A stretch of 64,000 nucleotides of DNA from Chiloscyllium plagiosum (taxonomy: Eukaryota): positions 102,160,079-102,224,078 of the forward strand of contig NC_057718.1 of NCBI RefSeq assembly GCF_004010195.1, written 5' to 3'. This document shows, one piece after another, positions 28,185 through 60,950 of this stretch (its first letter is position 1; each line of letters starts with the position of its first letter). Position numbers and translations under genes: made by a program. The notes under the pieces were generated by a model that was not told the origin of the DNA, made no database searches, and was given only the letters and a program-made list of their open reading frames with translations.

Positions 28185-28281
28185 TCATTCCTGAAGAAGG
28201 GCTTATGCCCGAAACGTCAATTCTCCTGTTCCCTGGATGCTGCCTGACCTGCTGCGCTTTTCCAGCAACACATTTTCAGCC
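28185..28281 (+). mobile_element. Penelope-like pLTR insertion, 9-bp TSD
   Basis: TSD CATATCCTA at 28176-28184 and 28282-28290. Confidence 0.8.
28191..28218 (+). ncRNA. Minimal type I hammerhead ribozyme motif
   Basis: CUGAAGA-A-GGGC-UUAU-GCCC-GAAA-CGUC: core, stem II, palindromic ACGU, GUC triplet. Confidence 0.7.
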
Positions 28282-28521
28282 CATATCCTACTAACCTTTA
28301 CCTATCCATGTATTTGCCCAAATGCCTTTTAAACGTTATAAACGTACCCGCCTCAACCACTTCCATTGGCAGCTCGTTCCATATGCGTACCAACCTCTGT
28401 GTAAAAAAGTTGCCCCTCTGGTTCCCTTTTATTCTTTCCCCTCTAACCTTAAACTGATGCCCTCCACTCCTCGATTCCCCAACCCTGGGGAAAAGACAGA
28501 GTGCATTCACCCGATGCACTC

Positions 28522-29141
28522 AGTTATGGACCAGGTCAGAACCCCTCAAAACTCCAAAAAGGTAATCCTGGCCCTAACCTTGCTCGTTGTTTTAAGCAGG
28601 TGAACAGTGGATATTCCAGGAGAGAATCAGCTGGTCAATCTACTTAGGTTTAAATAAACCAGAGTTTATTTGCAAGATTACCGAATTAAACAAAAACAGG
28701 AGAGAGCAGAATACAGAATAACCTAACCTCTCTGAAAACCCAGCAGATCATCCGAACTTAATGATGCTGTTCCAAATACTTGCACTAATCCCCATAAACA
28801 CCCATTGGTATGAAAGGTAAAATGAAACCCAGGGTCTTAGAGGAGAGAAGCCGGAAAGACAGAGGACCAGCCTAGACCTGTTTCTTTGGGTCCAGCAGCT
28901 TTTTCAACACTACTGATCTAATACCAAACTAAACCAGAGAGAAGCTGACCTGGTAAAACCGGCCGCTCCTCCTTCATTGTTTTTTTTTTAACTTGAAAGC
29001 CTTTAGCCTGAGGCAGTATCTGTTATCTATTATTAAACTGGCCCTAAAACCTTAGACTTTTCAGAGTCTACGTCTTTTAGAACCTCTCTGAAACTAAAAC
29101 CAAGGACACCATAACCTTGTTCAAGAAGCAGCATCATCACA
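28522..29141 (-). mobile_element. Probable solo LTR
   Basis: ~620-bp insert in the CR1, ends AGTTATGG ... CATCACA (near TG...CA), minus-strand AATAAA ~28665; no clear TSD. Confidence 0.5.
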
Positions 29142-29250
29142 AACCAAGCACCTCCACTCCAAGGCCCTGCCTTTCACCATGAAACTCCTGCCTTGATTTG
29201 ACTTTCCAAAATGCAAGACCTTACACTTATCGATATTAAACTCCATTTGT

Positions 29251-29652
29251 GATTTGGAGGAGCCGGTGTTGGACTGGGGTGTACAAAGTTAAAAATCACA
29301 CCACACCAGGTTATAGTCCAACAGGTTTAATTGGAAGCACTAGCTTTCGGAGCATTGCTCCTTCATTTGTTAAAGTTCACTTGAGAATGTAACTTGAAGA
29401 AAGTTCTGGGATTTACATGTGAAAAAACTGAAACCAACATGGTCATTCTAAAAGATGAGAGACTTAACAAACAATCCAGGTCTTTTTCAATATATAATTT
29501 CAGTCACATCACACTATAAACATTTGCTATAAATTCTGTGTCCTACAATCGTATACTCCACAACCACCTGATGAAGGAGCAGCGCTCCGAAAGCTAGTGC
29601 TTTCAAATAAACCTGTTGGACTATAACCCAGTGTTGTGTGATTTTTAACTTC
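29251..29652. mobile_element. Penelope-like (second family) insertion, inverted arm, 13-bp TSD
   Basis: TSD AAACTCCATTTGT at 29238-29250 and 29653-29665. Confidence 0.85.
29565..29599 (+). ncRNA. Minimal hammerhead ribozyme motif (intact core)
   Basis: CAC-CUGAUGA-A-GGAGC-AGC-GCUCC-GAAA-GCUA-GUG: stem I CAC/GUG, palindromic AGCU, CUA triplet. Confidence 0.75.
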
Positions 29653-30073
29653 AAACTCCATTTGTCATTTCTCAGCTCACTCCCCAGCTGATCAAGGTCC
29701 TGCTGCGATTTCTGAGAACCTTCCTTGCTGCCTACAAGACCTCCTATTTTAGTGTCATCTGCAAACTTACTAATCATGCCTTGTACATTCAGCCCATTCA
29801 ATGGAACCCTGGCTGGTCTGATAATCCTCAAATCCACTTTCTTGCCTCTTTCCCATGACCCTGAGTCTCTTCCTGGTTAAAAATCTGTCAGTCTCAGACT
29901 TGAATGTACTTAATGATACATTCTTAACAGCCCTCTGTGGTAGAGAATTACACAGATTCACTCCCCTCTGAGAGTAGAAATTCCCCCTCATCTCTGTCGT
30001 CAATGGGTGACCCCTTATTCTGAGTTGATGCCCTATGGTCCTGGACTACCCCCTGGACAAAAGTGAAACAACA

Positions 30074-30391
30074 GGCAGCACGGTGGCACAGTGGTTAGCA
30101 CGGCTGCCTCACAGCGCCAGCAACCCGGGTTCAATTCCTGCCTCAGGCGACTGACTGTGTGGAGTTTGCACATTCTCCCAGTGTCTGCGTGGGTTTCCAC
30201 CAGGTGCTCCGGTTTCCTCCCATAGTCCAAAAATGTGCAGTTTAGGTGGATTGGTCATGCTAAATTGCCTGTAGTGTTAGGTGCAGGGGTAAATGTAGGG
30301 GAATAGGTCTGGGTGGGTTGTGCTTTGGCGGGTCGGTGTGGACTTGTTGGGCCGAAGGGCCTGTTTCCACAGTGCAAGTAATCTAATCTAA
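30074..30391 (+). mobile_element. HE1-type V-SINE
   Basis: Full length with TAATC tail. Confidence 0.92.
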
Positions 30392-30764
30392 CCTCTCCGT
30401 ACCTTCTGTACAGCTAATGCTACGATACAGTGTCATTCAGCCCATTAAATCTGGGCTGGCCCCTTGTTCCATTCCCCTTTCCAGTCACCATCGCCTTCCA
30501 TAATGCTTCCCCTTTGAGTATTTCTGTTACTGTCTTTTGAAGGTTCCTGTCCATTCTGCTCCCTCACCCCTGCCCATTTAGGCAAGACATTACAACACAC
30601 TGACTAAATATTACCCTCCGTGGGTCACCCCTGTTGTTCTGGGACAGTCAACCTGACCCTTTGACCTGCGATATATTTCATCCTGAAGGTCCTGCTTTCC
30701 TGTCGATTTAAGACTCTTTACATGAAACTCAGAGGGTTCCAATCCCACTCCCGAGACCCAACAC

Positions 30765-31430
30765 CACGGCACCTACACTGAGAGAGTGCTGCACTGTCAG
30801 AAATACTGTCCTTCTGTTAAGGGGACGTTAAACTGAGGGGGCAGGGGGAAATATCCCGAGGTGGCCTCTGCGTGGAAGGGGAATTTGGCCAGACTCCTGA
30901 CTGATCTTGATTCCTTAGCTGAAATCTTGAGTGAAGCTGATTGAGCCACGGTAACTCAGTGGTTAGCACTGTTGCCTCATAGCACCATGAACCCAGGTTC
31001 GATTCCAGCCTTGGGTGACTGTCTGTGTGGAGTTTGCACATACTCCCCGTGTATGCGTGGGTTTCCTCCGGGTGCTCCGGTTTCCTCCCACAGTCCAAAG
31101 ATGTGCAGGTCAGGTGTATTGGCCGTAGTGTTCAAGGGTGTGTGGGTTAGGTGCATTAGTCAGGGGAAGTGTAGAATCATAGATAGGGGGAATGGATCTG
31201 AGTGGATTAATCTTCAGAGTGTTGGTGTTGACTTGTTGGGCTAAATGGCCTGTTTCCACACTGTAGGGATTCTGTGGGTCACTATCAGGTTGTTGACTTT
31301 GGGGTCTTGCTGTGCACATGCATCGGCAGCCTCACAGCAGTGAGTTCATTTGTTCATTTGAAAGAACACTTCATTTGTGAGACACAACCTGAGATTGTAA
31401 AGAAGTGTAATGGAAATACAATGTTTTGTC
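30765..31430 (+). mobile_element. Deu-domain SINE split by an HE1 SINE (30945-31273)
   Basis: GAGTGCTGCACTGTCAGA...GACGTTAAACTGAGG before the HE1, GGGTCTTGCTGTGCAC...GAAATACAA after it. Confidence 0.6.
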
Positions 31431-31755
31431 AACTGTCTACAGGAAGGACATTCCCAATGACTGGGGAGTCTAGAACCAGGGGTCCCACTCTGGGGTCGGC
31501 CACTTCGGACTGAGATGAGAAATCTGAGAAATGTCTTCACCCAGAGAGCGGGGAGCCTGTGGAATTCTCTGCCACAGAAAGCCGTTGAGGCAAGAGCATT
31601 GAGTGTTTCCAAGAATGAGTTAGATGTAGTTTGTCGGTTCTTTTGATCGATCAAGGAAGGTGCAGTCTCCACCCAGTGGCTGAAACCAGTTACAGCAGCA
31701 AAGCCTGGCTGGACTGAGACATTGAGCAGGACATTGCTTTGCCATGGAGCTGGGC

Positions 31756-31815
31756 TCCACTGGGGATTGTGGGATCCACTGGGGATTGTGGGATCCACTG
31801 GGGATTGTGGGATCC
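31756..31815. repeat. 19-bp unit x3 (CCACTGGGGATTGTGGGAT)
   Basis: Direct reading. Confidence 0.9.
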
Positions 31816-32204
31816 AGCCAGGATTACCCTGAGGACTTCAACATGGATAAGGAATAAGGATACTGCTGCATTTATCAGAGCTGCTGTCAGTAATTCCCCA
31901 CCACATGGGGCAGTCCATCAGTTTTGCCTTTACCCCACCTCATTTCAAATTGATGCTCTCAGCTGAACGATGCGTCAGGAACGTGCTGGGGTCCTCCTGA
32001 GAGGGCAGGCGGGGCCGCAGTGGTGGAATGACGGCGCTGACAGTGCAGCACTCCCTCCACGTGGCCCCAAAGTGTCTCCTCCGCGCTCACACCCCACTCC
32101 ATGTCCCCGTCTGGGGGTTCACCCTGGGATCCTCGATGTACCAAGTGGAGGGTGGGGCCGCTATCCGAGGCACCGTGAGTGGGCACCGATTTGATCTGGG
32201 GGAA

Positions 32205-32726
32205 CACTTTTGGGCCTTTTATCTGAGGAAAGGTGGACTGACATTGGAGGTAGTCTGGAGAAGGTTCAATCAGCTGATCCCGGGATGGAGGGACTATCTG
32301 ATGAGGAGATTGGCCCCGTATCCACTGGGAATATAGAACAATGAGAGGCGATGTTATTGAAACATACAATATTCTTAGGAAGGTTGACAGGGTAGATACA
32401 GAAAGATTGGTTGCCCTGGTGGGAGAGTCCAAAACCACAGGGCATCATCTCAGAGTAAGGAGTCATCCAGCGAAGACAGGAATGAGGAGGAATTTCTTCT
32501 CTCAGAGGGGAGTGAGACTGGAATTCTTTACTGCAGAGGCTGGGTATATTCAAGACTGAGAGAGAGAGAGAGACAGACTTCTATTCAGTAAGGGGAAACA
32601 AGGCTATGGGGATCCAGGCAGGAAAGTGGAGTTGAGGGTGATCAGATCAGCCAAGATCTCATTGAATGGGGGAACATGCTTGATGGGCTGAATGGCCTAC
32701 TCCTGCTCCAATGTCTAATGGTCTTA
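32205..32726 (+). mobile_element. CR1 3' fragment
   Basis: MRGDVIETYNIL...RRNFFSQR plus 3'UTR. Confidence 0.88.
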
Positions 32727-32944
32727 GCTGGGGGTAGCCTCCCCCTCCCTCTCTTGATCTTGATGATGCCCCACAGGGGTCAGGGTCCCCACCCCCAAAC
32801 ACAGTGAGAGACTGGTCTAAACACACTCCAGTCATCTCCTTTCAGGCTGACCCCGGGTATTCCGAGGGGTTTCGGTCATTTCACTGCCTCGGACATCCGG
32901 CCCCTGTCTCTGAACAGGGTCAGTGGTTGGAGTGGAAGGAAGCG

Positions 32945-35900
32945 GCCAGAGTGGGGACACCAGTGACCAGTGGTCGGAGTGGGCACAGGGACATCATTGA
33001 CCAGCAGCCGGAGCGGGGACAGGGTCAGCAGTGACCAATGGCCGGAGGGAGGACAGGGACAGCAGTGACCAGCGGCCGGAGTGGGGACAGGGACAGGGTC
33101 AGCAGTGACCAGTGGCTGGAGTGGGGACAGGGGCAGCAGTGACCAATGGCTGGAGTGGGAGCAGGGAAGCAGTGACCAATGGCTGGAGTGGGAGCAGGGA
33201 AGCAGTGACCAGTGGCCGGAGTGGGAACAGGGGCAGCAGTGACCAGTGGCCGGAGCGGGGACAGGGTCAGCAGTGACCAATGGCCAGAGTGGGAGCAGGG
33301 AAGCAGTGACCAATGGCCGGAGTGGGAGCAGGCACAGAAGTGACCAGTGGCCGGAGCGGGGACAGGGACAGCAGTGACCAGCGGCCAGAGGGGAGACAGA
33401 GTCAGCAGTGACCAGCAGCCGGAGTGGGGACAGGGTCAGCAGTGACCAATGGCCGGAGTGGGAGCAGGGTCAGCAGTGACCAGCGTCTGGAGCAGGGAAA
33501 GGGACAGGGACAGCAGTGACCAGCGGCCGGAGTGGGGACAGGGACAGCAGTGACCAGTGGCCGGAGTGGGGAGAGGGACAGCAGTGACCAGTGGCCAGAG
33601 TGGGGACTGGGACAGGGACAGCAGTGACCAGCGGCCGGAGCGGGGACAGGGACAGCAGTGACCAGCGGCCGGAATGGGGACAGGGACAGGGACAGCAGTG
33701 ACCAGTGGCCGGAGCGGGGACACGGACACCAGTGACCAGCGGCCGGAGCGGGGACAGGGACAGCAGTGACCAGCGGCCGGAGTGGGGACATGGACAGCAG
33801 TGACCAGTGGCCGGAGTGGGGANNNNNNNNNNNNNNNNNNNNNNNNNNNNNNNNNNNNNNNNNNNNNNNNNNNNNNNNNNNNNNNNNNNNNNNNNNNNNN
33901 NNNNNNNNNNNNNNNNNNNNNNNNNNNNNNNNNNNNNNNNNNNNNNNNNNNNNNNNNNNNNNNNNNNNNNNNNNNNNNNNNNNNNNNNNNNNNNNNNNNN
34001 NNNNNNNNNNNNNNNNNNNNNNNNNNNNNNNNNNNNNNNNNNNNNNNNNNNNNNNNNNNNNNNNNNNNNNNNNNNNNNNNNNNNNNNNNNNNNNNNNNNN
34101 NNNNNNNNNNNNNNNNNNNNNNNNNNNNNNNNNNNNNNNNNNNNNNNNNNNNNNNNNNNNNNNNNNNNNNNNNNNNNNNNNNNNNNNNNNNNNNNNNNNN
34201 NNNNNNNNNNNNNNNNNNNNNNNNNNNNNNNNNNNNNNNNNNNNNNNNNNNNNNNNNNNNNNNNNNNNNNNNNNNNNNNNNNNNNNNNNNNNNNNNNNNN
34301 NNNNNNNNNNNNNNNNNNNNNNNNNNNNNNNNNNNNNNNNNNNNNNNNNNNNNNNNNNNNNNNNNNNNNNNNNNNNNNNNNNNNNNNNNNNNNNNNNNNN
34401 NNNNNNNNNNNNNNNNNNNNNNNNNNNNNNNNNNNNNNNNNNNNNNNNNNNNNNNNNNNNNNNNNNNNNNNNNNNNNNNNNNNNNNNNNNNNNNNNNNNN
34501 NNNNNNNNNNNNNNNNNNNNNNNNNNNNNNNNNNNNNNNNNNNNNNNNNNNNNNNNNNNNNNNNNNNNNNNNNNNNNNNNNNNNNNNNNNNNNNNNNNNN
34601 NNNNNNNNNNNNNNNNNNNNNNNNNNNNNNNNNNNNNNNNNNNNNNNNNNNNNNNNNNNNNNNNNNNNNNNNNNNNNNNNNNNNNNNNNNNNNNNNNNNN
34701 NNNNNNNNNNNNNNNNNNNNNNNNNNNNNNNNNNNNNNNNNNNNNNNNNNNNNNNNNNNNNNNNNNNNNNNNNNNNNNNNNNNNNNNNNNNNNNNNCGGA
34801 GCGGGGACAGGGTCAGCAGTGACCAGTGGCTGGAGTGGGGACAAGGACAGGGTCAGCAGTGACCGGTGGCCAGAGTGGGGACAGGGACAGGGTCAGCAGT
34901 GACCAGTGGCCGGAGCGGGGACAGGGTCAGCAGTGACCAGTGGCCGGAGTGGGGATAGGGGCAGGGTCAGCAGTGACCAGTGGCCGGAGTGGGGACAGGG
35001 GCAGCAGTGACCAGTGGCCAGAGTGGGGACAGGGACAGGGTCAGCAGTGACCAGTGGCCGGAGTGGGGACAGGGGCAGCAGTGACCAATGGCTGGAGTGG
35101 GAGCAGGGAAGCAGTGACCAGTGGCCGGAGTGGGGACTGGGACAGGGACAGCAGTGACCAGCGGCCAGAGCGGGGACAGGGACAGCAGTGACCAGCAGCC
35201 GGAATGGGGACAGGGACTGGGACAGCAGTGACCAGCGGCCGGAGCGGGGACACGGACAGCAGTGACCAGTGGCCGGAGTAGGGACAGGGACAGCAGTGAC
35301 CAGCGCTGGAGTGGGGACAGCGTCAGGGACAGCAGTGACCAATGGCCGGAGTAGGGACAGGGACAGCAGTGACCAGCGGCCGGAGTGGGGACAGGGACAG
35401 CAGTGACCAGTGGCCGGAGTGGGGATTGAGACAGCAGTGACCAGCGGCTGGAGTGGGGATTGAGACAGCAGTGACCAGCGGCTGGAGTGGGAGCAGTGGT
35501 GGCAGTGACCTGCGGCCGGAGTGGGGACAGGGATGGCAGTGACCAGCGGCTGGATTGGGGACAGGGATGGCAGTGACCAGTGGCCGGAGTGGGGACAGGG
35601 ACAGGGTCAGCAGTGACCAGTGGCCGGAGCGGGGACAGGGTCAGCAGTGACCAGTGGCCGGAGAGGGGAGCAGGGACAGGGACAGCAGTGACCAGCGGCC
35701 GGAGCGGGGACAGGGTCAGCAGTGACCAGCGGCCGGAGTAGAGACAGGGTCAGCAGTGACCAGCGGCCGGAGCGGGGACTGGGTCAGCAGTGACCAGTGG
35801 CCGGATTGGGGACAGGGACAGGGACAGCAGTGACCAGTGGCCAGAGTGGGGACAGGGACAGCAGTGACCAGTGGCCGGAGTGGGGACAGGGACAGGGTCA

Positions 35901-38490
35901 GCAGTGGCCAGCGGCCGGAGTGGGGACAGGGACAGGGACAGCAGTGACCAGCGGCCAGAGCGGGGACAGGGTCAGCAGTGACCAGTGGCCGGAGCGGGGA
36001 CAGGGTCAGCAGTGACCAGTGGCTGGAGTGGGGACAAGGACAGGGTCAGCAGTGACCGGTGGCCAGAGTGGGATCAGGGACAGGGTCAGCAGTGACCAGT
36101 GGCCGGAGCGGGGACAGGGTCAGCAGTGACCAGCGGCCGGAGTAGAGACAGGTACAGCAGTGACCTGCGGCTGGAGAGGGAGCGAGGACAGGGACAGCAG
36201 TGACCAGCGGCCGGAGCGGGGACAGGGACAGCAGTGACCAGTGGCCGGAGTGGGGACTGGGTCAGCAGTGACCATCGGCCGGAGCGGGGACTGGGTCAGC
36301 AGTGACCAGTGGCCGGATTGGGGACAGGGACAGGGACAGCAGTGACCAGTGGCCAGAGTGGGGACAGGGACAGCAGTGACCAATGGCCGGAGTGGGGACA
36401 GGGACAGGGTCAGCAGTGGCTAGCGGCCGGAGTGGGGACAGGGACAGCAGTGACCAGCGGCCTGAGCGGGGACAGGGTCAGCAGTGACCAGTGGCCGGAG
36501 CGGGGACAGGGTCAGCAGTGACCAGTGGCCGGAGTGTGGACAAGGACAGGGTCAGCAGTGACCTGTGGCCAGAGTGGGGACAGGGACAGGGTCAGCAGTG
36601 ACCAGTGGCCGGAGCGGGGACAGGGTCAGCAGTGACCAGTGGCCATGGTGGGGACAGGGACAGGGTCAGCAGTGACCAGTGGCCGGAGTGGGGACAGGGG
36701 CAGCAGTGACCAGTGGCCGGAGTGGGGACAGGGACAGGGTCAGCAGTGACCAGTGGCCGGAGTGGGGACAGGGGCAGCAGTGACCAATGGCTGGAGTGGG
36801 AGCAGGGAAGCAGTGACCAGTGGCTGGAGCGGGGACAGTGGCAGCAGCGACCAATGGCCGGAGTGGGAGCAGGGAAGCAGTGACCAATGGCCGGAGTGGG
36901 AGCAGGGAAGCAGTGACCAGTGGCCGGAGCGGGGACAGGGACAGCAGTGACCAGCGGCCAGAGGGGAGACAGAGTCAGCAGTGACCAGCAGCCGGAGTGG
37001 GGACAGGGTCAGCAGTGACCAGCGGCTGGAGCAGGGAAAGGGACAGGGACAGCAGTGACCAGCGGCCGGAGTGGGGATCGAGACAGCAGTGACCAGCAGC
37101 CGGAGTGGGGACAGGGACAGCAGTGACCAGTGGCCGGAGTCGGGAGAGGGACAGCAGTGACCAGTGGCCGGAGTGGGGACTGGGACAGGGACAGCAGTGA
37201 CCAGCGGCCAGAGTAGGGACAGGGACAGCAGTGACCAGCGGCCGGAGTGGGGACAGGGACAGCAGTGACCAGTGGCCAGAGTGGGGATTGAGACAGCAGT
37301 GACCAACGGCTGGAGTGGGAGCAGGGGTGGCAGTGACCAGCGGCTGGAGTGGGGACATGGATGGCAGTGACCTGCGGCCGGAGTGGGGACAGTGACAGGG
37401 TCAGCAGTGACCAGTGGCCGGAGTGGGGACAGGGACAGGGTCAGCAGTGACCAGTGGCAGTGACCAGTGGCCGGAGTGGGGACAGGGACAGGGTCAGCAG
37501 TGACCAGTGGCCGGAGCGAGCACAGGGTCAGCAGTGACCAGTGGCCGGAGTGGGGAGCAGGGACAGGGACAGCAGTGACCAGCGGCCGGAGCAGGGACAG
37601 GGTCAGCAGTGACCAGTGGCCGGAGTAGAGACAGGTACAGCAGTGACCTGCGGCTGGAGAGGGCGCGAGGACAGGGACAGCAGTGACCAGCGGCCGGAGC
37701 GGGGACAGGGACAGCAGTGACCAGTGGCCGGAGCGGGGACTGGGTCAGCAGTGACCAGCGGCCGGAGCGGGGACTGGGTCAGTAGTGACCAGTGGCCGGA
37801 TTGGGGACAGGGACAGCAGTGACCAGTGGCCAGAGTGGGGACAGGGACAGCAGTGACCAGTGGCCGGAGTGGGGACAGGGACAGGGGCAGCAGTGGCCAG
37901 CGGCCGGAGTGGGGACAGGGACAGGGACAGCAGTGACCAGCGGCCGGAGCGGGGACAGGGTCAGCAGTGACCAGTGGCTGGTGCGGGGACAGGGTCAGCA
38001 GTGACCAGTGGCCGGAGTGGGGACAAGGACAGGGTCAGCAGTGACCGGTGGCCAGAGTGGGGACATGGACAGGGTCAGCAGTGACCAGTGGCCGGAGCGG
38101 GGACAGGGTCAGCAGTGACCAGTGGCCGGAGTGGGGACAGGGACAGGGTCAGCAGTGACCAGTGGCCGGAGTGGGGACAGGGACAGGGTCAGCAGTGGCC
38201 AGCTGCCGGAGTGGGGACAGGGACAGGGACGGCAGTGACCAGCGGCCGGAGCAGGGACAGGGTCAGCAGTGACCAGTGGCCGGAGCGGGGACAGGGTCAG
38301 CAGTGACCAGTGGCCGGAGTGGGGACAAGGACAGGGTCAGCAGTGACCGGTGGCCAGAGTGGGGACAGGGACAGGGTCAGCAGTGACCAGTGGACGGAGC
38401 GGGGACAGGGTCAGCAGTGACCAGTGGCCGGAGTGGGGACAGGGACAGGGTCAGCAGTGACCGGTGGCCGGAGCGGGGACAGGGACCGGG
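32945..38490 (+). repeat. G-rich minisatellite, 34-bp unit CAGCAGTGACCAGYGGCCGGAGYGGGGACAGGGW with 40-bp (+GGGACA) variants; gap 33823-34796
   Basis: Direct reading; 34-aa periodicity in the translations. Confidence 0.97.
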
Positions 38491-38494
38491 TGCA

Positions 38495-38790
38495 GAGTGT
38501 GGTGGCAGCCTGTGGTCAGGGCAGGTGGAGGTGTTCTGTGATGGTCTGCTGATGCAGAGAGTGTTTGCTGAGAGCCTGTGATGTTTGTCTCTTTAACGTT
38601 GCCTCTTGTTTTTCTGTCCTATGTTTACACCGTGTATCGCTTTAATATAATCCTTTTTCTTCGTTTCTCTATTCTGTAACTCTGGATTGTAACCTGGTAC
38701 CGAAAATGGTGCAGTCAGGGGTGACTTATCAGCTTTTCATTGTAACCATCAAGTTCATGTGATATTAAAGCTAATTCAATTCAATTTAAT
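38495..38790 (+). mobile_element. Rex1-like / non-autonomous element 3' tail
   Basis: GCTTTTCATTGTA...CATGTGA..TAAAG(AATTC)n resembles the Rex1 tail at 11825-11880. Confidence 0.45.
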
Positions 38791-39034
38791 CCCAACCAGA
38801 CACAAGGAATATAAAGTACAGGAGCTTCAGATCCAAGAAATTGATGAAGGGATTATGCATGGTAAGTGACTACAGAACCATGGGGCAGGAGGGAGAACAA
38901 GCTAGCCTCTTACACCATCTCTCCAGAGCATTGCAATTGGCTACAGAAGATATTAGGACTGGGTTTAATCTCACCCATTTCACATTTTGATCTTGATCAT
39001 AAAGAACAGGAGTGTCAAAGGACTGAGAAACTGA

Positions 39035-39870
39035 GGGAAAAGTGGGGACTGCAGATGCTGGAGATCAGAGTTTAGACTAGAGTGTTGCTGGAAGAGCACC
39101 GCAGGTCAGGCAGCATCCGAGGAGCAGGAGAATTGACGTTTTGGGCAAAAGCCCTTCATCAGGATTGAAGGCAGGGAGCCTCCGGGGTGGAGAGATAAAT
39201 GGGGGTGGGGCTGGGAGAAGGTAGCAAATAGTACAATAGGTGAATGGGGGTGGGGATGGAGGTGATAGGTNNNNNNNNNNNNNNNNNNNNNNNNNNNNNN
39301 NNNNNNNNNNNNNNNNNNNNNNNNNNNNNNNNNNNNNNNNNNNNNNNNNNNNNNNNNNNNNNNNNNNNNNNNNNNNNNNNNNNNNNNNNNNNNNNNNNNN
39401 NNNNNNNNNNNNNNNNNNNNNNNNNNNNNNNNNNNNNNNNNNNNNNNNNNNNNNNNNNNNNNNNNNNNNNNNNNNNNNNNNNNNNNNNNNNNNNNNNNNN
39501 NNNNNNNNNNNNNNNNNNNNNNNNNNNNNNNNNTCAGCACCATCCTCATGACCTGTCCTATCTGCCTATCTTCTTTTCCATCTATCCACTCCACCCTCCT
39601 CTCTGACCTATTACCTTTCACCCACCCCCATTCACCCATTGTACTCTTTGCTACCTTGCCCCACCCTCCTCTCTGACCTATCACCTCCATCCCCACCCCC
39701 ATTCACCTATTGTACTCTATGCTACTTTCTCCCCATCCCCAGGCCCCCTCCCATTTATCGCTCCACCCTGCAGGCACCCTGCCTCTGATGAAGGGCTTTT
39801 GCCTGAAATGTCGATTTTCCTGCTCCTTGGATGCTGCCTGACCTGCTGTGCTTTTCGAGCACCACTCTAA
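39035..39870. mobile_element. Penelope-like element, inverted pLTR arms, gap 39271-39533
   Basis: Hammerhead-like cores at 39135-39162 (-) and 39785-39812 (+). Confidence 0.8.
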
Positions 39871-40932: not shown

Positions 40933-41034
40933 GTTACGCCGAAGTTCTACCGAGGTCTTTGCTCGGGAGAGGCATCGCCTGCGGAAGAGAGGCGGGACTG
41001 CAGCGATGTGACTGAAGCTCGCGGGAGAACCGGC
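40933..41034 (-). CDS. Candidate exon (AGSPASFSHIAAVPPLFRRRCLSRAKTSVELRRN, or 5'UTR)
   Basis: Acceptor ctttgtttttcag, donor AAC/gtaagt, 102 nt, CpG-rich, one open frame (phase 0 to 0). Confidence 0.55.
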
Positions 41035-42811: not shown

Positions 42812-43631
42812 GGGGGGGGGTGGCTAGGGTGGGGTCAGGGTGAGACTGAGTTGGCACAAAGCTACGAGTGTCAGCCGTAACCAGAGCCCAGGACCCCAAC
42901 CCTCACCAATCCGCTCGCTTCCAGAAAACCAAAGCCTACCATTCCCAGGTAGACGCCTGTCATGTTCCTGAAGGAGGTATTCTGGAATTGCTGCTTGCTC
43001 TGCATTTTGGAACTGCGGGGTCAGTCAATGTGAAGAGGTCACAGGCAGAGTGATGTCCTTCATCCAGACAGGAATCTGTGGGGTTTATGGAGACGGAGAT
43101 TGTCCATTAGATCACGACATTAACCCTTGTACACAGAATTAGATACTTTAAAATGAATACACATCGGCAAATGTTCGGTTGCTCAAAAATGATCACAAAA
43201 TAACTGGTGGCAATAAAGAATGAGTTAATTTTCTTTCAGGAAGAATATCTAGATGTTAATTTTCTTGATCTCTTCCAAACTACCTGTGACAGCAGTGTTC
43301 CAGCTCCCCCGAACAGTTGCAAATCCTACAGAAAGTTCCAAATCCTCTGGAAAGTTACAGCTCCATCGGAAAGTTCCAGCTCTCTCCAAGATTCCGATGC
43401 CAGAGGTGGAATTGGGGGCAGGGTCGTAATGTTTAGCCAGTGAGGAAACCTGCGACAAGCAGGAAAAGTTCTGGCCCTCTTCACCAAGTGCCGGAACGCT
43501 GGGATATTTCTGGGGGAGGGAGGCATCGGTGCTACCTGCCCAATGCCAACTCTGAGACGGAGAAACAAAACAGAGATTAACTGGCACCTTGACAACGGTA
43601 ATGTTTCAGCTCCCCCCCCCCCCCACCCCGG

Positions 43632-43674: not shown

Positions 43675-43856
43675 GCTAACATCGCCCTCAAGTGGCATCA
43701 CAGAAAGACACAGGCTGCTCCTGTTTGGCTGTGTCTGGGGAAGGCTGTGTGTGAAACAGAAGAATAATCAAACAGGTTCACTCAGTGCTGCTTGGAACGC
43801 AGCAAATGCTGTGTTTCCCTGAAACAAATATAACACTTACTACCTCAGTATTGGTC

Positions 43857-44425
43857 ACATACAGGTACATTACCCTGTACTCCCCTCACTCACTTGTACA
43901 GGTACATGACCCTGTACTCCCCTCACTCACCTGTACAGGTACATTACCCTGTACTCCCCTCACTTGCCTGTACAGGTACATGACCCTGTACTCCCCTCAC
44001 TCACCTGTACAGGTACATGACCCTGTACTCCCCTCACTCACCTGTACAGGTACATGACCCTGTACTCCCCTCACTCACCTGTACAGGTACATTACCCTGT
44101 ACTCCCCTCACTTGCCTGTACAGTACATGACCCTGTACTCCCCTCACTCACCTGTACAGGTACATGACCCTGTACTCCCCTCACTCACCTGTACAGGTAC
44201 ATTACCCTGTACTCCCCTCACTCACCTGTACAGGTACATTACCCTGTACCCCCTCACTCGCCTGTACAGGTACATGACCCTGTACTCCCCTCACTCGCCT
44301 GTACAGGTACATTACCCTGTACCCCCTCACTCGCCTGTACAGGTACATTACCCTGTACTCCCCTCACTCAACTGTACAGGTACATTACCCTGTACTCCCC
44401 TCTCTCACTTGTAAAGGTATATTGT
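43857..44425. repeat. 37-bp minisatellite, ~15 homogeneous copies (CTGTACAGGTACATKACCCTGTACTCCCCTCACTCAC)
   Basis: Direct reading; 37-aa periodicity. Confidence 0.96.
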
Positions 44426-44754
44426 CCTGCGAGTACAGGAATTAATTTGTATTTGAGATTCAAAAACCTAATGTGCCTTTAAAAACTGCTGTGATGGGTG
44501 ATATTTTGCCTCCAGACGAATGAATTTTTTTAAAAAATGATCAAAGTGTCTCCTGCTTGAACCTGTTTGTCTACTTTGGGATGAAAGTGATACAATGCCA
44601 TCCTCTGCTGGAGGGTGGATTGTACTGCATTAGCAGCAGGGTTACCATCAGACAGGAGACAGGACAGGAGGGAATCATTGCAGGTTTGTGATTCTCTATC
44701 GTGTTCTTTATCTTGTATTCCCTCCCATCACCCCACCATTCCTTTCACATCATC

Positions 44755-46016
44755 ATGTACTCCACCTCTCCCCCTCACTCACCTGCACAGGTACATTATC
44801 GTACACTCTCCCTCATTCATACAGGTACATTGCCCTGTGCACACCCTCACTCACCTGTACTGGTGTATTATGCAATATTCCCCCTCACTCACCTGTACAG
44901 GGATATTACCCTCTATGCCCCACACTCACCTGTACAGGTACATTATGCAATACTCACCCCCTCACTCATCTATACAGGTATATTACACTGTATCCGCCTC
45001 ACTCACCTCTACAAGTATATTACCCTGTACTCCCTCAGTCATCTGTACAGGTATATTACCCTACATTGTGATCCACCCCTCCTTCACCTAAACAGGTATA
45101 TTACCTTGTACCATGATCCACCACCTCACTCACCTGTACAGGTACATTACCCTATACCATGTTTTCCCCCCTCCCTCACCTATACAGGTATATTACCCTG
45201 TACCATGTTCCCACCCCCTCCCTCATCTGTATAGGTATATTATCCCCTCCCTCACCTGTGCAGGTACATTACCCTGTACCATGATCCACACCTTTCTCAC
45301 CTGTACAGGTACATTAACCTGCACCATGATCTATCCCCTCCCTCACCTGTACAGGTACATTACTCTGTACCATATTCCCCCCTCACCTGTACAGGTATAT
45401 TACCCTGTACCATGATCCACCCCATCTCTCACCTGTACAGGTACATTACCCTGTACCATGTTCCCACCCTCATCCCACAACTGTACAGGTATATTACCCA
45501 GTATATCCCACCCTCACTTGTACAGGTATATTACCCTGTCCCATGATCCACCCCTTTCTCACCTGTACAGGTACATTACCCTGTTCCATGCTCCTCCCCC
45601 ACCCCTACATGTACAGTAACCTGTACCGTCTGTACCATGCCCCCCCCAACCTGTATCAGTACATTACCCTGTACTGTGATCCACCCCCTCCCTCACCTGT
45701 ACAGGGACATCCTCCTCCCTCGCCTGGACAAGTACATTAGCCTGTATCCCCCTCCCTCACCTGTTTAGGTGCATTACCTGTATGATGTTTCCCCACCCCC
45801 CCCCACATGTACGGTACCCTGTACCCTCTGTACCATGCTCCCCCCTCACCTGTACAGGTACATTACCCTGTACCGTGATCCATCCCCTCCCTCGCCTGTA
45901 TGAGGACATTAGCCTGCATCCACCTCCCTCACCTGTACAGGGACATTAGCCTGTATACCCTCCCTCACCTGTATGGGGACATTGCCTGTATCCCCTTCCT
46001 CACCTGTACAGGTATT
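44755..46016. repeat. Older diverged array of the same repeat family (~35-43-bp units)
   Basis: Recurrent CTCACCTGTACAGGTAYATTACCCTGTAC core. Confidence 0.92.
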
Positions 46017-52384: not shown

Positions 52385-53035
52385 ATAGATCATAGAATAT
52401 ACAACAATACAGCACAGGAATAGGCCCTTCGGCCTGCCATGTCTGTGCTGACCATGATGCTATTCTAAACGAATCCCATCTCCCTGCACCTGGTCCATAT
52501 CCCTCTATTCTCAGTTCATGTGTCTGTCTAAATGCCCCTTAAAAGTTGTTATTGTATGTGCCTCTATCACCTCCCCAGGCAGTGCGTTCCATGCACCTAA
52601 CACCCTCTGTGTAAAAAATGCTTGCCTCACACATCTCCTTTATCCCCCTTTCACTTTAAACCGATGCCCCTCGTATTTGACATTTCCATCCTGGGAAAAA
52701 GACCCCTGACTAATCAACCTATCCATGTCTCGCACCATTTTATCAGGTCACCCCTCGGCCTTCACACTCCAGTGAAAACAATCCAACTTTGTCCAACCTC
52801 TCCTTACAGCTCTGAGTTCTGAGGAAGGGTCACTCGACCCAGAACATTAACTCCTGATTTCTCTCCACAAACGCTGCTAGACCTGCTGAGCTTTTCTGGC
52901 AATTTCTGGGTTTTTTTTTGTTGTTTCTGATTTACAGGCATCCTCAGTTCTTTGGGTTCTCCTTATAGCTAATGCACTCCAATCCAGGCTCTGGTTAAAC
53001 CCCTTTTGCAGCCTTTCCAAAGCCATATCGCAGTG
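52385..53035 (-). mobile_element. CR1 3' fragment with nested PLE pLTR (52812-52957, 13-bp TSD)
   Basis: TSD TCTCCTTAYAGCT at 52799-52811 and 52958-52970; decayed hammerhead GAGTT-CTGAGGAAGGGTCACTCGACCCAGAACATT-AACTC. Confidence 0.8.
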
Positions 53036-55973: not shown

Positions 55974-57171
55974 TTTCTCTGGGAAAATCAGCCAATGAAA
56001 AGAGTGCAACAGCACAGATCACTTTTGAAATACACGATGAAAATAGTCCCCAGGAAGAAACAAAAACAGACTCAGGCAGAAGGACAGGACAATCCTATTT
56101 AAAAAATCAGGATTTTTGGACACTGCCGAGTAATTCAATCTGTGGCTCAATATGCATATTCCCGGATAGTTTTCAATGTTGGAAATGCACTGTGAGTTGT
56201 GAGTGTCAAGCCTTCATGATTCAATGGGAATACAGCCCATTAACCCCAGTACATGGTTTCAAATATGACCTTGATCCCTCACTTACATTTCAGTCCAATG
56301 TATCCTGGATGACGATGTTGTTATAAAATGTGGAACAAAATTTCTGACTGTGTGGAATGCGTTCAACTTTGACACAGGACCTTTAGAATCTGAGCTTTGA
56401 AACCAAATCAGTTCAGCACTTGATTTTCTAAAATCAGACAAAGTATTTGGACATAATCCTGGAAACTAAGCAGTCACAGTATGTTAGAGCATGTCAAGAC
56501 TGGTTGAGGTGAACTCCATTATAAACACAATAGTGTGGCTCCTTCTAGTATTGCAATTCTGGTTTGCACTGCCACTGTTGAGGTGGAAGGAGTACACTGA
56601 CTTATCGCATTCCTGACAGTCTCCAAACTGGTGTGAGTGAGTGAGAATTGATTTGGTGATGTTTGGAAGCATTATCTAGCACACTCTGTTGATGTTCTGC
56701 CAATTCCAACAATCTGTATTCAGACTTAGAATTGTTGAATGGTTGTAGCACAGAAGGAAGCTGTTTGTTTCATCGTATCTGAGTTAACCCTCAGCAGCAA
56801 TGGCTCACCCAATCCCACTTTTCCAATCTAGAGCTCTGAAAATGATTTTCACTACAGCCATTCTTTTAATCCATTCATTGGATGCGGGCATTGCTATGGA
56901 CCGGCATTTATTGCCCATCCCTAGTTGCCTTCAAGAAGGTAGTGGTGAGCTATCTTCTTAAACCACTGCGGTCCATGTGCTGTGGGGACACTGACAGTGC
57001 TGTTAGGGAGGCATTGCCAGGATTCTGACCCAGCCAAAATGTGATTTATGAAGATTTACATTCTATTGAAGAAAATAAGACAGAGCAAGCATGTGGTACA
57101 GGTCCTCTAAGTAGCTGTTTAGCAGAATAGAACTTTGGAACACAGCCCCTCAAGATGATACATTGCAAAAC

Positions 57172-58156
57172 TTTGTTTAAAAGTTACAGTCTCAAGTGAA
57201 CTTTAACAATTGGTGCCATGTCGGCCCAGATAATGCATTGAAGGTGTGAGGTGCCCTGTGTGAGGCTGTCTGTGCCCCAATGTTCAGACTGATTCTAATC
57301 TAAAAAAGGGATTTGCAGAATCTTACATAGACTCATGTAGTCTTGGAGCACAATAAAATGTAATTCAGCAAGTTCAAATTCACCCCACAAACTTATATGT
57401 GTATGTGTACAAGTGGGTTATGTAGTGTCTGTGAGAGGGTGTGTGTGTGAGTGTAAAGGGGTATAAGTCGGTGTGTCTGTGTGTGTAGTGCAGTGGGGTC
57501 ACCTGTAGTGTGACATGAACCTAAGGTCCCGGTTGAGGCCGTCCCTGTGGGTACCGAACTTGGCTATCAGCCTCTGCTCGGCCACTTTGCATTGTTGTCT
57601 ATTCCAAAGTTGGCCTTGGAGGATGGTCACCCAAAGATCGAATGTCCCAGACCACTGAAGTGTTCTCTGACTGGGAGGGAACACTCCTGCCTGGTGATTG
57701 TTGCGTGGTGTCTGTTGCTGTAGCCTCTGCTCGGTCTCACCAATGTACCATGCCTCAGGGCATCCTTGCCTGCAGCGCATGAGATAGACAACGTTGGCTG
57801 AGTCACATGAGTACCTGCCATGTACATGGTGGGAGGTGTCCCCATGTGTAATGGTGGTAATGGATACCACCTATTCATGTCAGGATACCTCCCACTATTG
57901 TTAAAGTTCATTGAGAATGTAACTTCAAGGAAGTTCTGAGATTTATATGTGAAAGAATTGAAACCAACATGGTCATTCTAAAAGATGAGAGACTTAACAA
58001 ACAATCCAGGTCTTTTTCAATATATCATTTCAGTTACATCACACTGTAAACTTTTGCTATAAATTCTGTATCTTACGATCTTATACTCCAAAACTCCGAA
58101 AGCTAGTGCTTCTAATTAAACCTGTTGGACTATAATCTGGTGTTGTGTGGTTTTTA
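57172..58156. mobile_element. Penelope-like element fragment: GIY-YIG endonuclease (-) plus 3' pLTR (+)
   Basis: YSCDSANVVYLMRCRQGCPEAWYIGETEQRL...HFSG...KFGTHRDGLN; pLTR from 57898 matches 29368-29652 with the hammerhead core deleted. Confidence 0.9.
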
Positions 58157-58223
58157 TCTTAGATGATGTTGGTTGCTTTGCCGAAACAATGGGAAGTATA
58201 GATGGTGTCAATGGATGGAAGGC

Positions 58224-58401
58224 AAAAGTGAGTACTGCAGATGCTGGAGATCAGAGTCTAGATCAGAGTGGTGCTGGAAAAGCACAGCAGGTCAGGCAGC
58301 ATCCGAGGAGCAGGAAAATTGACGTTTCGGGCAAAAGCCCTTCATCAGGAATGCTGCCTGACCTGTTGTGCTTTTCCAACTCCACTCTAATCTAGACTCA
58401 G
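58224..58401. mobile_element. Penelope-like mini-insertion, inverted arms, 12-15-bp TSD
   Basis: TSD TGGATGGAAGGC at 58212-58223 and 58402-58413. Confidence 0.85.
58321..58348 (-). ncRNA. Minimal hammerhead ribozyme motif (intact core)
   Basis: CUGAUGA-A-GGGC-UUUU-GCCC-GAAA-CGUC. Confidence 0.75.
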
Positions 58402-58928
58402 TGGATGGAAGGCTGGCATGTGTGATGGACTGGGCTGTAGTCACAACCCTCTGTAGTTTCTTGCAGTCTTGGGAAGTGCAGTTGCCAAACGACATTGTGA
58501 TGCATCCAGATAGGATGCTTTCTATGATGCATCTATAAAAATCAGTAAGAGTCCTTGTGGACAATCCTTGTAGACCTGCTAGGTTTCTCCAGCATTCTCT
58601 GTCTTTGTTAAAGTGCCACAAGTTTTGAAAACTCAACAAATGTAGGAACAAAATTTAATTAAAATTGTACTGATCTTTTCAACCAGATGTAAGCACCAGG
58701 ATACAATTTCACTCAAGTATACTGAGCGACATGCATACCAAAGGCCGTCTGCACATTACTGATTGTAATTCCAACCTATCAACACTATCAACACTGCTTT
58801 ATGTTCAGAGTTAACTGCCTATAACATATGTATTTGACAGGAGGCAATGAAACACAAAGATGTTTTGTAATATTAAAAGGTTTTTCTGTTAGACTAGAGA
58901 TAATATTCCCCAAATCCTAACCATCCAA

Positions 58929-59046
58929 GAATCCCTACAGTGTGGAAGCAGGTGTTTTGGCCCATCAACTCCACACTGACCCTCCAAAGAGCATCCCATG
59001 CCATTACCCTGTATTTCCCATAGTCAATCCACCCTAACCTGCACAT
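58929..59046 (-). mobile_element. HE1 SINE 3' half
   Basis: Ends at CCTAACCTGCACAT and continues at 62858. Confidence 0.8.
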
Positions 59047-60333
59047 AGAGTCACATAGTCATAGAGATGTGCAGCATGGAAACAGACCCTTCGGTCCAAC
59101 CTGTCCATGCCAACCAGATAGCCCAACCCAATCTAGTCCCACCTGCCAGCATCCGGCCCATATCCCTCCAAACCCTTCCTATTCATATACCCATTCAAAT
59201 GACTCTTAAATGTTGCAATTGTATCAGCCTCCACCACTGGCAGCACATTCCATACATGTACCACCCTCTGCATGGAAACATTTGCCCCTTAGGTCTTTCT
59301 TATATCTTTCCCCTCTCACCCTAAACCTATGCCCTCTAGTTCTGGACTCCCCGACCCCAGGGAAAAGACTTTGTCTATTTACCATATCCATGCCCCTTAT
59401 GATTTTATAAACCTCTATAAGGTCACCCCTCAGTCTCCGACGCTCCAGGGAAAACAGTCCCAGCCTTTACAACCTCTCCCTATATCTCAAATTCTCCAAC
59501 CCTGGCAACATCCTTGTAAATCTTTTCTGAGCCCTTTCAAGTTTCACAACAGCTTTCCGATAGGAAGGAGACCAGAATTGCACGCCTAACCAATGTCCTG
59601 TACAGCCGCAACATGACCTCCCAACTCCTGTACTCAATACTCTGACCAATAAAGGAAAGCATACCAAATGCCTTCTTCACTATCCTATCAACCTGCAACT
59701 CCACTTTCAAGGAGCTATTAACATGCATTCCAAGGTCTCTTTGTTCAGCAACACTCTCTAGGATCTGACCGTTAAGTGTATAAGTCCTGCTAAGATTTGC
59801 TTTCCCAAAATGCAGCACCTCACATTTATCTGAATTAAACTCCATCTGCCACTTCTCTGCCCATTGGCCCATCTGGTCCAGATCCTGTTGTAATCTGAGG
59901 TAATCCTCTTCGCTGTCCACTACACCTCCAATTTTGGTGTCATCTGCAAACTTACTAACTGTACCTCTTATGCTTGCATCCAAATCATTTATATAAATGC
60001 TGAAAAGTAGGGACCCAGCACCGATCTTTGTGGCACTCCACTGGTCGCAGGCCTCCAGTCTGAAAAACAACCCTCCACCACCACCCTCTGTCTTCTAGCT
60101 TTGAGCCAGTTCTGTATCCAAATGGCTAGTTCTCCCTGAGGTCTTCCATGAGATCTAACCTTGCTAACCAGTCTCCCATGGAGAACCTTATCGAACACCT
60201 TACTGAAGTCCATATACATCACATTTACCGCTCTGCCCTCATCAATCCTCTTTGTTCCTTTTTCAAAAAACTCAATCAAGTTTGTAAGACATGATTTCCT
60301 ACGCACAAAGCCATGTTGACTATCCCTAATCAG

Positions 60334-60950
60334 AGCTTAAAAATGTGTTGCTGGAAAAGCGCAGCAGGTCAGGCAGCATCAAAGGAGCGGGAAAATCGAC
60401 ATTTCGGGCATAAGCCCTTCTTCAGGAATGAGGAGGGTGTGCCAAGCAGGCTAAGATAAAAGGTAGGGAGGAGGGACTTGGGGAGGGGCATTGGGAATGC
60501 GATAGGTGGAAGGAGGTTAGGGTGAGGGTGATAGGCCAGAGAGGAGGTGGGGCGGAGAGGTCGGAAAGAAGATTGCAGGTCAAGAAGGTGGTGCTGAGTC
60601 TGAGGTTTGGGATTGAGAAAAGGTGGGGGATGGGGAAATGAGGAAGCTAGAGAAATCAGCATTCATCCCTTGTTGTTGGAGAGTTCCTAGGTGGAAGATG
60701 AGGCGTTCTTCCTCCAGGCGTCGTGTTGCCATGGTCTGGCAATGGAGGAGGCCAAGGAACTGCATGTCCTTGGTGGAGTGGGAGGGGGAGTTAAAGTGTT
60801 CAGCCACGGGGTGGTTGGGTTGGTTGGTGCGGGTGTCCCAGAGGTGTTCTCTGAAGCATTCCGCAAGTAGGCGGCCTGTCTCCCCAATGTAGAGGAGGCC
60901 ACATCGGGTGCAGCGGATGCAGTAAGTGATGTGTGTGGAGGTGCAGGTGA
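60334..60950 (-). mobile_element. Penelope-like element 3' fragment (GIY-YIG C-terminus plus hammerhead pLTR), 12-bp TSD
   Basis: AEHFNSPSHS...RRLEEERLIFHLGTL; TSD ATCCCTAATCAG at 60322-60333 and 60951-60962; core CUGAAGA...GAAAUGUC at 60398-60425. Confidence 0.92.

Follow-up and report, generated by a model that had tools for sequence, protein, structure and literature searches.

Minimal type I hammerhead ribozymes (min-HHRs) have been known since 2014 from the terminal repeats of metazoan Penelope-like elements (PLEs) (Cervera & De la Peña 2014, PMC4209133). They combine CUGANGA and GAAA boxes with one extra base between positions 9 and 10.1, a G10.1-C11.1 pair, a palindromic 15.2-16.2 segment without loop 3 and a short helix I, and several families share a genome, mostly as single motifs in truncated copies. 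Neptune-type PLEs (Craig et al. 2021, PMC8557442; Arkhipova et al. 2013, PMC3846280) are characterized by a reverse transcriptase (RT), a C-x4-C-x2-C linker plus a GIY-YIG endonuclease at the C terminus, and by 5'-truncated insertions with an adjacent inverted arm, a 30-40-bp tail at one end and target-site duplications. For the Poseidon element PAc of Anolis carolinensis (Frangieh et al. 2024, PMC11167929), the published work describes cleavage assisted by protein and two sites at which the RT starts, with two classes of 3' ends ~35 nt apart downstream of the hammerhead and an apparently uncut template RNA. Non-LTR retrozymes (PMC7229834; bioRxiv 10.64898/2026.07.22.740005) are short, non-coding kin of PLE terminal repeats that carry a type I hammerhead and form head-to-tail arrays. 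PMC8557442 describes the role of PLE hammerheads as still unsettled.

We analysed a 64,000-nt stretch of the shark Chiloscyllium plagiosum (contig NC_057718.1; hereafter the window), which adds three shark families, A, B and C, to this class; two of these are linked to Neptune-like elements. The motifs share all of the above features of the min-HHRs, but helix II is short (4-5 bp) in the window copies. No shark figures among the vertebrates in the available parts of Fig. S3 and Table S1 of PMC4209133, nor are the sequences of the three families present in the alignment as available to us. In Fig. S3, the row for Neptune of Acropora digitifera has a GGGC 5' arm and an ACGU-C end, as does family A, and is identical with motifs in two related loci (L040 and L053). 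The motifs are very probably minimal type I hammerheads of the PLE terminal-repeat module, left in short, duplication-flanked and likely inert insertion fragments; in the source elements the motif is likely under selection and would cleave RNA solely as a dimer, probably aided by the element's protein.

Detection and anatomy of the motifs

The window was scanned with a descriptor demanding perfect CUGANGA and GAAA boxes and a helix II of at least 4 bp, with 60 dinucleotide shuffles as the control. Six loci were recovered against a shuffle mean of 0.28; adding the UH site and the palindrome left three (0.017 in shuffles), and demanding also a helix I of at least 3 bp left one (0 in shuffles). 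Five of the six are family copies and one (46112-) is unrelated; this and other CUGANGA...GAAA matches (52947-, 22527- and others) were taken as chance, being without family support. An Rfam scan of the whole window returned no hammerhead family at E <= 5, and with neither an Rfam match nor a helix III stem the motifs lie outside the canonical type I hammerhead of Rfam. All 11 sites named in an earlier note on this DNA are hammerhead-derived. Its plus-strand coordinates denote C3, except for 16888, the start of helix II (C3 = 16880), and 3883 (C3-equivalent 3882), and its minus-strand coordinates denote position 17, the respective C3 positions being 39162, 58348, 60425 and 29369. Arms that it had missed include 61518-, 4125+, 58094+ and 3881-, among others. 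The motifs are held by 12 PLE insertions (Table 1), nine of which have clear target-site duplications of 9-16 nt.

Among the 12 parsed copies, the two boxes, U16.1 and H17 are perfect in five (four of family A, one of B). One unpaired base follows position 9 in all 12, being A in 11, with the twelfth truncated there; the earlier description of the motif lacks this base. The 10.1-11.1 pair, wherever present, is G-C or its CpG-decayed form G-U. Helix III is reduced to a palindrome, ACGU in 4/7 A copies and AGCU in 3/3 B copies, with ACAU in both C copies; the exceptions are all CpG-type changes. Helices I and II are formed by different paired sequences in the three families. The closing pair of helix I is C-G in families A and B, and helix I of family A is weak in the window even where G1.1 survives. 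The proposal of covarying stems is borne out between families and species, but within families the changes amount to decay, mainly at CpG: in family A, 12/49 CpG cells differ as against 32/622 other cells. A contrast between the core and the downstream region at non-CpG sites of family A (0/66 versus 28/468, P = 0.037) was set aside, because the downstream value is inflated by differences between subfamilies and, probably, by old CpG sites that went uncounted.

The cores that had been ascribed to the families hold only in part. The ACGU end of family A is replaced by AUGU at 39785 and 60425, and its GAAA is changed at 39162 (G12A). For family C, a GAAA plus AC(G/A)U core had been claimed; it shows neither GAAA nor ACGU here because both copies have G12A and ACAU, which is not palindromic, and neither core is intact. 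The likeness of family C to A downstream of the motif is globally borderline (35/55, with a shuffle maximum of 35). An AUG inside the first box of family A opens a frame of 17 codons only, unlike PAc, whose ORF begins at helix II.

Table 1. Motif copies, the insertions that hold them and host-gene exons, in window coordinates
Feature	Position	Strand	Details
Family A two-armed insertion	3774..3979	.	15-bp target-site duplication (right copy 3966-3980); + arm begins at +3 (copy 3882: C3, U4 absent, cut within first box at inversion junction); - arm begins at +21
Family A two-armed insertion	4077..4185	.	+ arm begins at +28/+29, the predicted cut site; - arm tail only
Host gene coding exon 4	13270..13367	-	
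Family B two-armed insertion	16819..16998	.	13-bp target-site duplication
Hammerhead in 16819..16998	16880-16908	+	G5A, G8A
Family C copy	22185..22281	+	hammerhead 22187-22216, G12A, ACAU; target-site duplication sought, not found
Host gene coding exon 3	22917..22979	-	
Family A solo insertion, ~95 bp	28185..28279	+	9-bp target-site duplication
Hammerhead in 28185..28279	28191-28218	+	perfect boxes, C2.1-A1.1 mismatch
Family B two-armed insertion	29251..29651	.	13-bp target-site duplication; arms predicted to pair ~80 bp
Tailed arm of 29251..29651	29366-29251	-	+4..+119; copy 29369, cut inside first box at inversion junction
Untailed arm of 29251..29651	29367-29651	+	-200..+84
Family B minimal hammerhead, sole complete copy (29568)	29565..29599	+	antisense to host gene; helix I CAC/GUG, CUGAUGA, extra A, helix II GGAGC/GCUCC, GAAA, AGCU palindrome; predicted cut site after A17 (29596)
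Family A two-armed insertion across N gap	39034..39870	.	
Hammerhead in 39034..39870	39162-39135	-	G12A, helix I closing mismatch; sense in host intron
Hammerhead in 39034..39870	39785-39812	+	AUGU, G-U at 10.1-11.1, helix I strand lost
Host gene coding exon 2	40933..41034	-	
Host gene first coding exon	42940..43005	-	matches C. plagiosum LOC122553107, no Pfam family
Family C solo insertion, 146 bp	52812..52957	+	13-nt target-site duplication, one mismatch
Hammerhead in 52812..52957	52819-52848	+	5-bp helices I and II; G12A, A13G, ACAU
Family B insertion	57166..58160	.	- arm: GIY-YIG remnant and 3' UTR, ends at -159
Family B GIY-YIG remnant, frameshifted	57502..57864	-	57% identity to C-terminus of 643-aa shark RT-EN protein (P0027)
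+ arm of 57166..58160	57898-58160	+	hammerhead 5' half lost by internal deletion
Family A two-armed insertion	58220..58399	.	16-nt target-site duplication, one mismatch
Hammerhead in 58220..58399	58348-58321	-	perfect boxes, C2.1-A1.1 mismatch
Short inverted arm of 58220..58399		+	spans +47..+95
Family A 5'-truncated PLE end	60329..60954	-	GIY-YIG remnant, 3' UTR, hammerhead; 12-bp target-site duplication
Hammerhead in 60329..60954	60425-60398	-	perfect boxes, AUGU, helix I 2 bp then mismatch
Family A GIY-YIG endonuclease remnant	60625..60954	-	87% identity to Chiloscyllium punctatum RT-EN protein (P0001)
Family A two-armed insertion	61433..61577	.	- arm begins at +10 (first box absent); + arm tail only

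Link to Penelope-like elements and their relatives

The family A motif lies in the terminal repeat of an RT/GIY-YIG element, as is seen directly at 60954-60329, and the family B motif is tied to a GIY-YIG element through a 3' UTR shared by 57209-57166 and 29367. With endonuclease remnants upstream of both, families A and B are, as the earlier note had it, minimal hammerheads of type I that belong to the terminal repeats of PLEs, in which the palindromic helix III needs a dimer. By its architecture family C may be a PLE hammerhead too, with no endonuclease link in the window.

We searched 80 related PLE loci from metagenomes, 38 of them with a full endonuclease end, for the motif. A sense motif lies within 800 nt 3' of the endonuclease in 12/38, with none antisense and 0.05 in shuffles; the remaining 26 are without it under the strict descriptor, perhaps through decay or the limits of that descriptor. 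Covariation was assessed on 17 distinct motifs from 50 segments, collected with no pairing demanded and including many close kin. All 17 have the extra A and G10.1-C11.1, and their helix I is Watson-Crick in 47/51 cells against a shuffle mean of 28, in a test that ignores relatedness; its closing pair is A-U or U-A. From these sharks to relatives at 33-53% protein identity, every catalytic box position, the UH site and base pairing in helices I and II have been retained. The close relatives P0003 and P0027 have an RT, a Zn-finger-like C-x4-C-x2-C linker plus GIY-YIG at the C terminus, and the window fragments begin after the linker. This linker of the relatives, which Neptune shares with Nematis (PMC8557442), is a point of likeness to Neptune-type PLEs. 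Of families A, B and C, the window itself contains neither a full-length copy nor any sequence coding for the RT; the truncations, inverted arms, tails and duplications are also alike. The window families and PAc likely belong to different clades. Exact-pattern scans gave no match for family B in metagenome contigs or for family A in viral contigs, and no PLE relatives were found in the viral contigs searched.

Exactly one arm is tailed in 7/8 two-armed insertions. By analogy with other PLEs, target-primed reverse transcription at insertion would begin at two internal sites, ~85-95 and 120-130 nt downstream of C3, and so leave one tailed and one untailed arm; the spacing is like that of the two 3' end classes of PAc. 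In the source element, the 4-nt palindrome would join two motifs by pairing, so that helix III is formed and cleavage follows position 17, and inserted copies would then decay without selection.

Ends of the copies and the RNA template

Of 20 arms, 8 have their 5' end within -7..+10 of the core, and a single one has it at the cut site. Ends that lie near the core and hardly at the cut site suggest uncut templates, as for PAc. We tentatively propose, as an idea with somewhat less than even prospects, that in the three shark PLE families reverse transcription ends by run-off where helix I begins on its 5' side and not at the cut site; the template would then start a few bases before the hammerhead and be uncut, with the hammerhead at its head as a dimer- and protein-gated switch that removes a capped leader. 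A splice acceptor at -5 was rejected as the cause of the cluster, as an AG is missing from that position in the long copies of A and B; in D. virilis Penelope an intron ends at 491 (PMC2377424) and the motif is at 496 (PMC4209133 Table S1).

Alternatively, the motif could be a conserved RNA or DNA signal, such as a protein-binding or promoter element, which is hammerhead-like but no longer a ribozyme in sharks. The avoidance of the cut site by the 5' ends speaks for this. In the Anolis system, moreover, mutants unable to cleave still insert normally in vitro, and RNA-seq gave no reads ending at the cut site (PMC11167929). We consider this unlikely, given that the conservation extends to all catalytic box positions, the UH site and both helices in the distant relatives, and that the Anolis motif cleaves with protein and shows C3-G8 rescue (PMC11167929).

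Slightly less probable again is an independent non-autonomous family, retrozyme- or SINE-like, in which the short copies were amplified from their own masters and are not by-products of full PLEs. Several copies of 95-146 bp do have their own duplications and a common 5' boundary just upstream of the core, and PLE-repeat-derived retrozymes have been described (10.64898/2026.07.22.740005; PMC7229834). However, head-to-tail hammerhead repeats are absent from the window, where all 12 insertions are dispersed and single or head-to-head, and retrozyme monomers should begin at the cut site, as just one arm of the 20 does. Furthermore, longer arms extend the same sequence into the 3' UTR and endonuclease, and the junctions of the two-armed copies are different in every insertion.

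Intactness of the copies and the host gene

The earlier note took 29568, 58321 and 28191 to be intact and possibly still self-cleaving. This stands for the structure of 29568 only, since 28191 and 58348 (its 58321) have lost the closing pair of helix I. Self-cleavage of 29568 in place is improbable: the copy is antisense to the host gene and predicted to be sequestered in a ~80-bp duplex with its inverted arm, in which almost the whole of +4..+33 is 97-100% paired and P(G10.1-C11.1) is 0.0. A local 6-bp hairpin is also predicted over GAAA and the cut site, and no complete partner motif exists in the window. Nearest-neighbour energies of -17.7 kcal/mol for the active dimer versus -27.4 for two monomers are indicative only, as they ignore core tertiary contacts and proteins. 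The window's hammerhead copies are likely inert, because the only complete one is antisense to the host gene and predicted to be trapped in a hairpin.

The host gene, LOC122553107, was recognised by protein search; exons after exon 4 were not found in the window, and a Pfam scan of 113 unique-region frames gave no host domain. Its start codon is preceded by acceptor-like sequence, which makes an upstream non-coding exon likely. The suggestion that minus-strand copies lie in sense within a host transcript is right in that a minus-strand gene exists, but the sense copies inside the coding span (39162, 29369, 3881) all have broken cores. Perfect boxes inside that span occur in 0/3 sense and 3/6 antisense copies, a difference that is not significant (one-sided ~0.24). 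Outside it, 58348 and 60425 lie 2.1 kb apart, 15-17 kb upstream of the start codon, on the host-gene strand.

It is very improbable that one or more copies still cut RNA here and affect the host gene, be it 58348 or 60425 within a long intron of the 5' UTR, or 29568 within an antisense transcript. The minus-strand gene with its likely upstream exon, the perfect boxes of 58348 and 60425 on its strand and a sense-antisense contrast of the kind that selection against cutting in sense would produce speak for it. Yet that contrast falls short of significance, 58348 is without its closing pair and 60425 reads AUGU; 29568 lies antisense, is partnerless and is predicted to be sequestered; and no CpG island marks a promoter within 42-64 kb. 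Even constructed dimers show only weak cleavage in vitro (PMC4209133), and for cleavage the motif of Anolis requires the element's protein (PMC11167929).

No evidence in the window points to a role for the host gene. What the copies offer concerns the PLEs themselves, as their 5' ends cluster where the motif begins and not at the cut site, and their paired arms match the two in vitro RT start sites. If the proposed run-off at helix I is correct, the hammerhead would remove the capped leader from RNAs that are not used for insertion, and shark genomes would amount to a vast natural record of the ends of PLE templates.

Hammerhead motifs of the three families

Hammerhead-derived sequence was recovered at every site named in the earlier note, whose minus-strand coordinates mark position 17; the corresponding core nucleotides C3, by which copies are named and from which offsets are counted, lie at 39162, 58348, 60425 and 29369. 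In a descriptor scan of both strands, with 60 dinucleotide shuffles of the window as the null, perfect boxes with a helix II of at least 4 bp were found at 6 loci (shuffle mean 0.28), at 3 when UH and the palindrome were added (0.017) and at 1 when a helix I of at least 3 bp was also demanded (0). No Rfam hammerhead family matched the window at E <= 5, consistent with a motif having no helix III. The feature is real and of a known kind, as had been proposed, and its novelty is limited to the shark family sequences. A literature search, mostly outside subscription papers and Repbase/Dfam entries, returned no report of hammerheads in shark Penelope-like elements (PLEs); a preprint (bioRxiv 10.64898/2026.07.22.740005) describes retrozymes from a single chondrichthyan and may hold these families in its supplementary tables.

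The families differ in helix II (A, GGGC/GCCC; B, GGAGC/GCUCC; C, GGGUC/GACCC) and in helix I (UC/GA, CAC/GUG and GAGUU/AACUC, respectively). Over the 55 nt past the cut site, B has 27 identities with A and 29 with C (shuffle means 25 and 26) and is thus unrelated to either; the 35 between A and C equal the shuffle maximum of 35 and are borderline. Since the helices differ yet pair, and this downstream sequence is unrelated or borderline, the core is better conserved between families than the flanking pLTR. The covariation of stems claimed earlier stands between families; within family A, departures from the column majority affect 12 of 49 CpG cells and 32 of the 622 remaining cells (P = 2e-5), a bias that indicates decay rather than covariation. 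The family A motif (e.g. 28210-28219) carries three CpGs, across C11.1-G12, C15.2-G16.2 and C17-G1.1, so methylation-driven decay falls earliest on the general base, on the palindrome and on the pair that closes helix I.

Searching metagenome contigs with an alignment built from 12 relatives confirmed 505 loci, of which the best 80 were retrieved. Among the 38 with an endonuclease end and at least 400 nt behind it, 12 bear a sense motif within 800 nt downstream and none an antisense one (0.05 in shuffles); a boxes-only search of 50 segments, free of any pairing demand, gave 20 sense matches, 17 of them distinct, and one antisense match. The extra A and G10.1-C11.1 occur in every one of the 17 distinct motifs and the CG palindrome in 12; at helix I positions 1-3, Watson-Crick pairs fill 47 of the 51 cells, against a shuffle mean of 28 (0 of 5000 reach 47, by a statistic that ignores kinship among motifs). 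The motifs of loci L040 and L053 are identical to the Acropora digitifera Neptune row in Fig. S3 of PMC4209133. L060 carries, 330 nt past the endonuclease, a variant with a U3-A8 core and a CGCG insert, and the palindromes of L025 and L033 are longer by 2 nt; PMC4209133 describes both variant types.

State of the copies

Twelve copies were parsed, and 29568 is the sole complete one. Of the others taken earlier to be intact, 28191 and 58348 (listed as 58321) are mismatched at the helix I closing pair. This pair matters for the hammerhead, and its being paired in 16 of 17 related PLE motifs backs that importance; the Fig. S6 legend of PMC4209133 includes a constructed mutant of it. In several other copies core residues are changed or lost; for two such residues, G12 and G8, roles as general base and general acid have been proposed (PMC6155905). 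Each of the two box changes in 16880 (16880-16886) replaces G with A within TGA and not at a CpG; in this single copy they could reflect deamination of the first cDNA strand.

Features in the window
Feature	Position	Strand	State or remarks
Copy	29568	+	complete
Copy	28191	+	perfect boxes; C2.1-A1.1 mismatch
Copy	58348	-	perfect boxes; C2.1-A1.1 mismatch
Copy	60425	-	perfect boxes; AUGU; helix I 2 bp, then mismatch
Copy	39785	+	perfect boxes; AUGU; G-U at 10.1-11.1; helix I strand lost
Copy	39162	-	G12A
Copy	16880	+	G5A, G8A
Copy	52819		G12A, A13G
Copy	22187		G12A
Copies	3882, 29369, 61527		cut inside or after first box at junction
Host coding exons	43005-42940, 41034-40933, 22979-22917, 13367-13270	-	GT-AG borders; match LOC122553107
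LINE remnant	~6700-9180	+	large, frameshifted; RT domain (RVT_1, Pfam E 4.7e-24); antisense in host intron
LINE remnant	~59050-62700	-	AP-endonuclease and RT pieces; split by family A insertions 60329-60954 and 61433-61577
Minisatellite arrays	~32900-38500, 43800-46000		long; 34/40-nt and 37/45-nt units; first interrupted by 974-N gap

On the + strand the inverted arm of 29568 is transcribed ahead of the motif; in the predicted structure almost the whole of +4..+33 is paired with that arm (P 0.97-1.0), and the predicted probability of G10.1-C11.1 is 0.0 with the arm and 0.99 without it. The insertion has a folding energy of -168.3 kcal/mol (z = -13), and through a change that no other copy shares, GAAA and the cut site come to lie in a complete 6-bp hairpin. 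The computed energy is -17.7 kcal/mol for the active dimer and -27.4 kcal/mol for two monomers, tertiary contacts being ignored by this score; the other same-strand family B copies, 16880 and 58094, are broken and lie 13 and 29 kb away. With 29568 predicted to be paired to its own arm and 28191 and 58348 structurally defective, the suggestion of local self-cleavage is mostly unsupported.

Carriers and insertion architecture

Judged from coding remnants, the carriers are PLEs, with a link for families A and B; none was found for C within the window. The GIY-YIG remnant upstream of 60425 (Pfam E 0.016) shares 87% identity with a protein of Chiloscyllium punctatum, and its relatives bear RT and GIY-YIG domains. 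A second remnant (57864-57502) shares 57% identity with the C-terminal end of an RT protein of 643 aa from a shark, and the 3' UTR behind it continues into the sequence preceding 29568. Both relatives have the C-x4-C-x2-C linker, a mark of Neptune and Nematis (PMC8557442).

Target-site duplications are clear in 9 of the 12 insertions (9-16 nt), weak in 2 and absent in 1. Head-to-head pairs make up 8 of the 12, and 7 of these 8 have exactly one tailed arm, ending at +119..+129, and one untailed, ending at +84..+95. Inverted arms with a one-sided tail are already described for PLEs (PMC8557442, PMC3846280), and the two 3' ends match the two RT start sites reported for the Anolis element (PMC11167929). 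Tailed arms at 4077-4120 and 61528-61577 end at +82 and +80, beside the +84..+95 class of 3' ends, as expected if one RNA molecule served both primings.

The 5' ends of 20 arms, a count that omits the old C-like arms at about 3660-, 21229- and 58571+, fall at -7..+10 in 8 cases, at the cut site (+28/29) in 1, elsewhere downstream in 5 and upstream of -106 in 6, with none at -8..-106. Ends are uncertain by ~2 nt and that at 22185 is unanchored; the clustering has a binomial P of 1.5e-5, for an interval picked post hoc and a small sample. The simplest reading is a template that was uncut and started just before helix I. Two independent family B arms (29367; 57896-57898) begin at -200 and about -202, which suggests that this family has another defined 5' boundary. 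Our search, mostly outside subscription papers, found no report of 5' ends gathering at a PLE hammerhead.

Host gene and activity

All residues encoded by the four exons of the uncharacterised host gene are those of C. plagiosum LOC122553107, and two of them are different in C. punctatum; this makes C. plagiosum or a close relative the likely source of the window. The gene matched no Pfam family, and no exon beyond the fourth was found in the window. The ATG is preceded by acceptor-like sequence, which suggests that a further exon lies upstream. It had been proposed that minus-strand copies could lie in sense within the pre-mRNA: 39162, 29369 and the 3881 arm are so placed in the coding span, but all their cores are broken, and 29568, 28191 and 39785 are antisense there. 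Perfect boxes occur in 0 of 3 sense and 3 of 6 antisense copies, a contrast that is not significant. Copies 58348 and 60425 share the strand of the gene and precede its start codon by 15-17 kb.

Motif anatomy, position, insertion architecture, decay and strand are what this analysis establishes. In the source elements two motifs would pair via the palindrome and then be cut after position 17. Minimal PLE motifs did not cleave as monomers and cleaved weakly as dimers (PMC4209133); for the Anolis motif, cleavage required the protein of the element, and insertion of that element did not need cleavage (PMC11167929). The copies in the window probably arose as by-products of target-primed reverse transcription, and they are probably inert.
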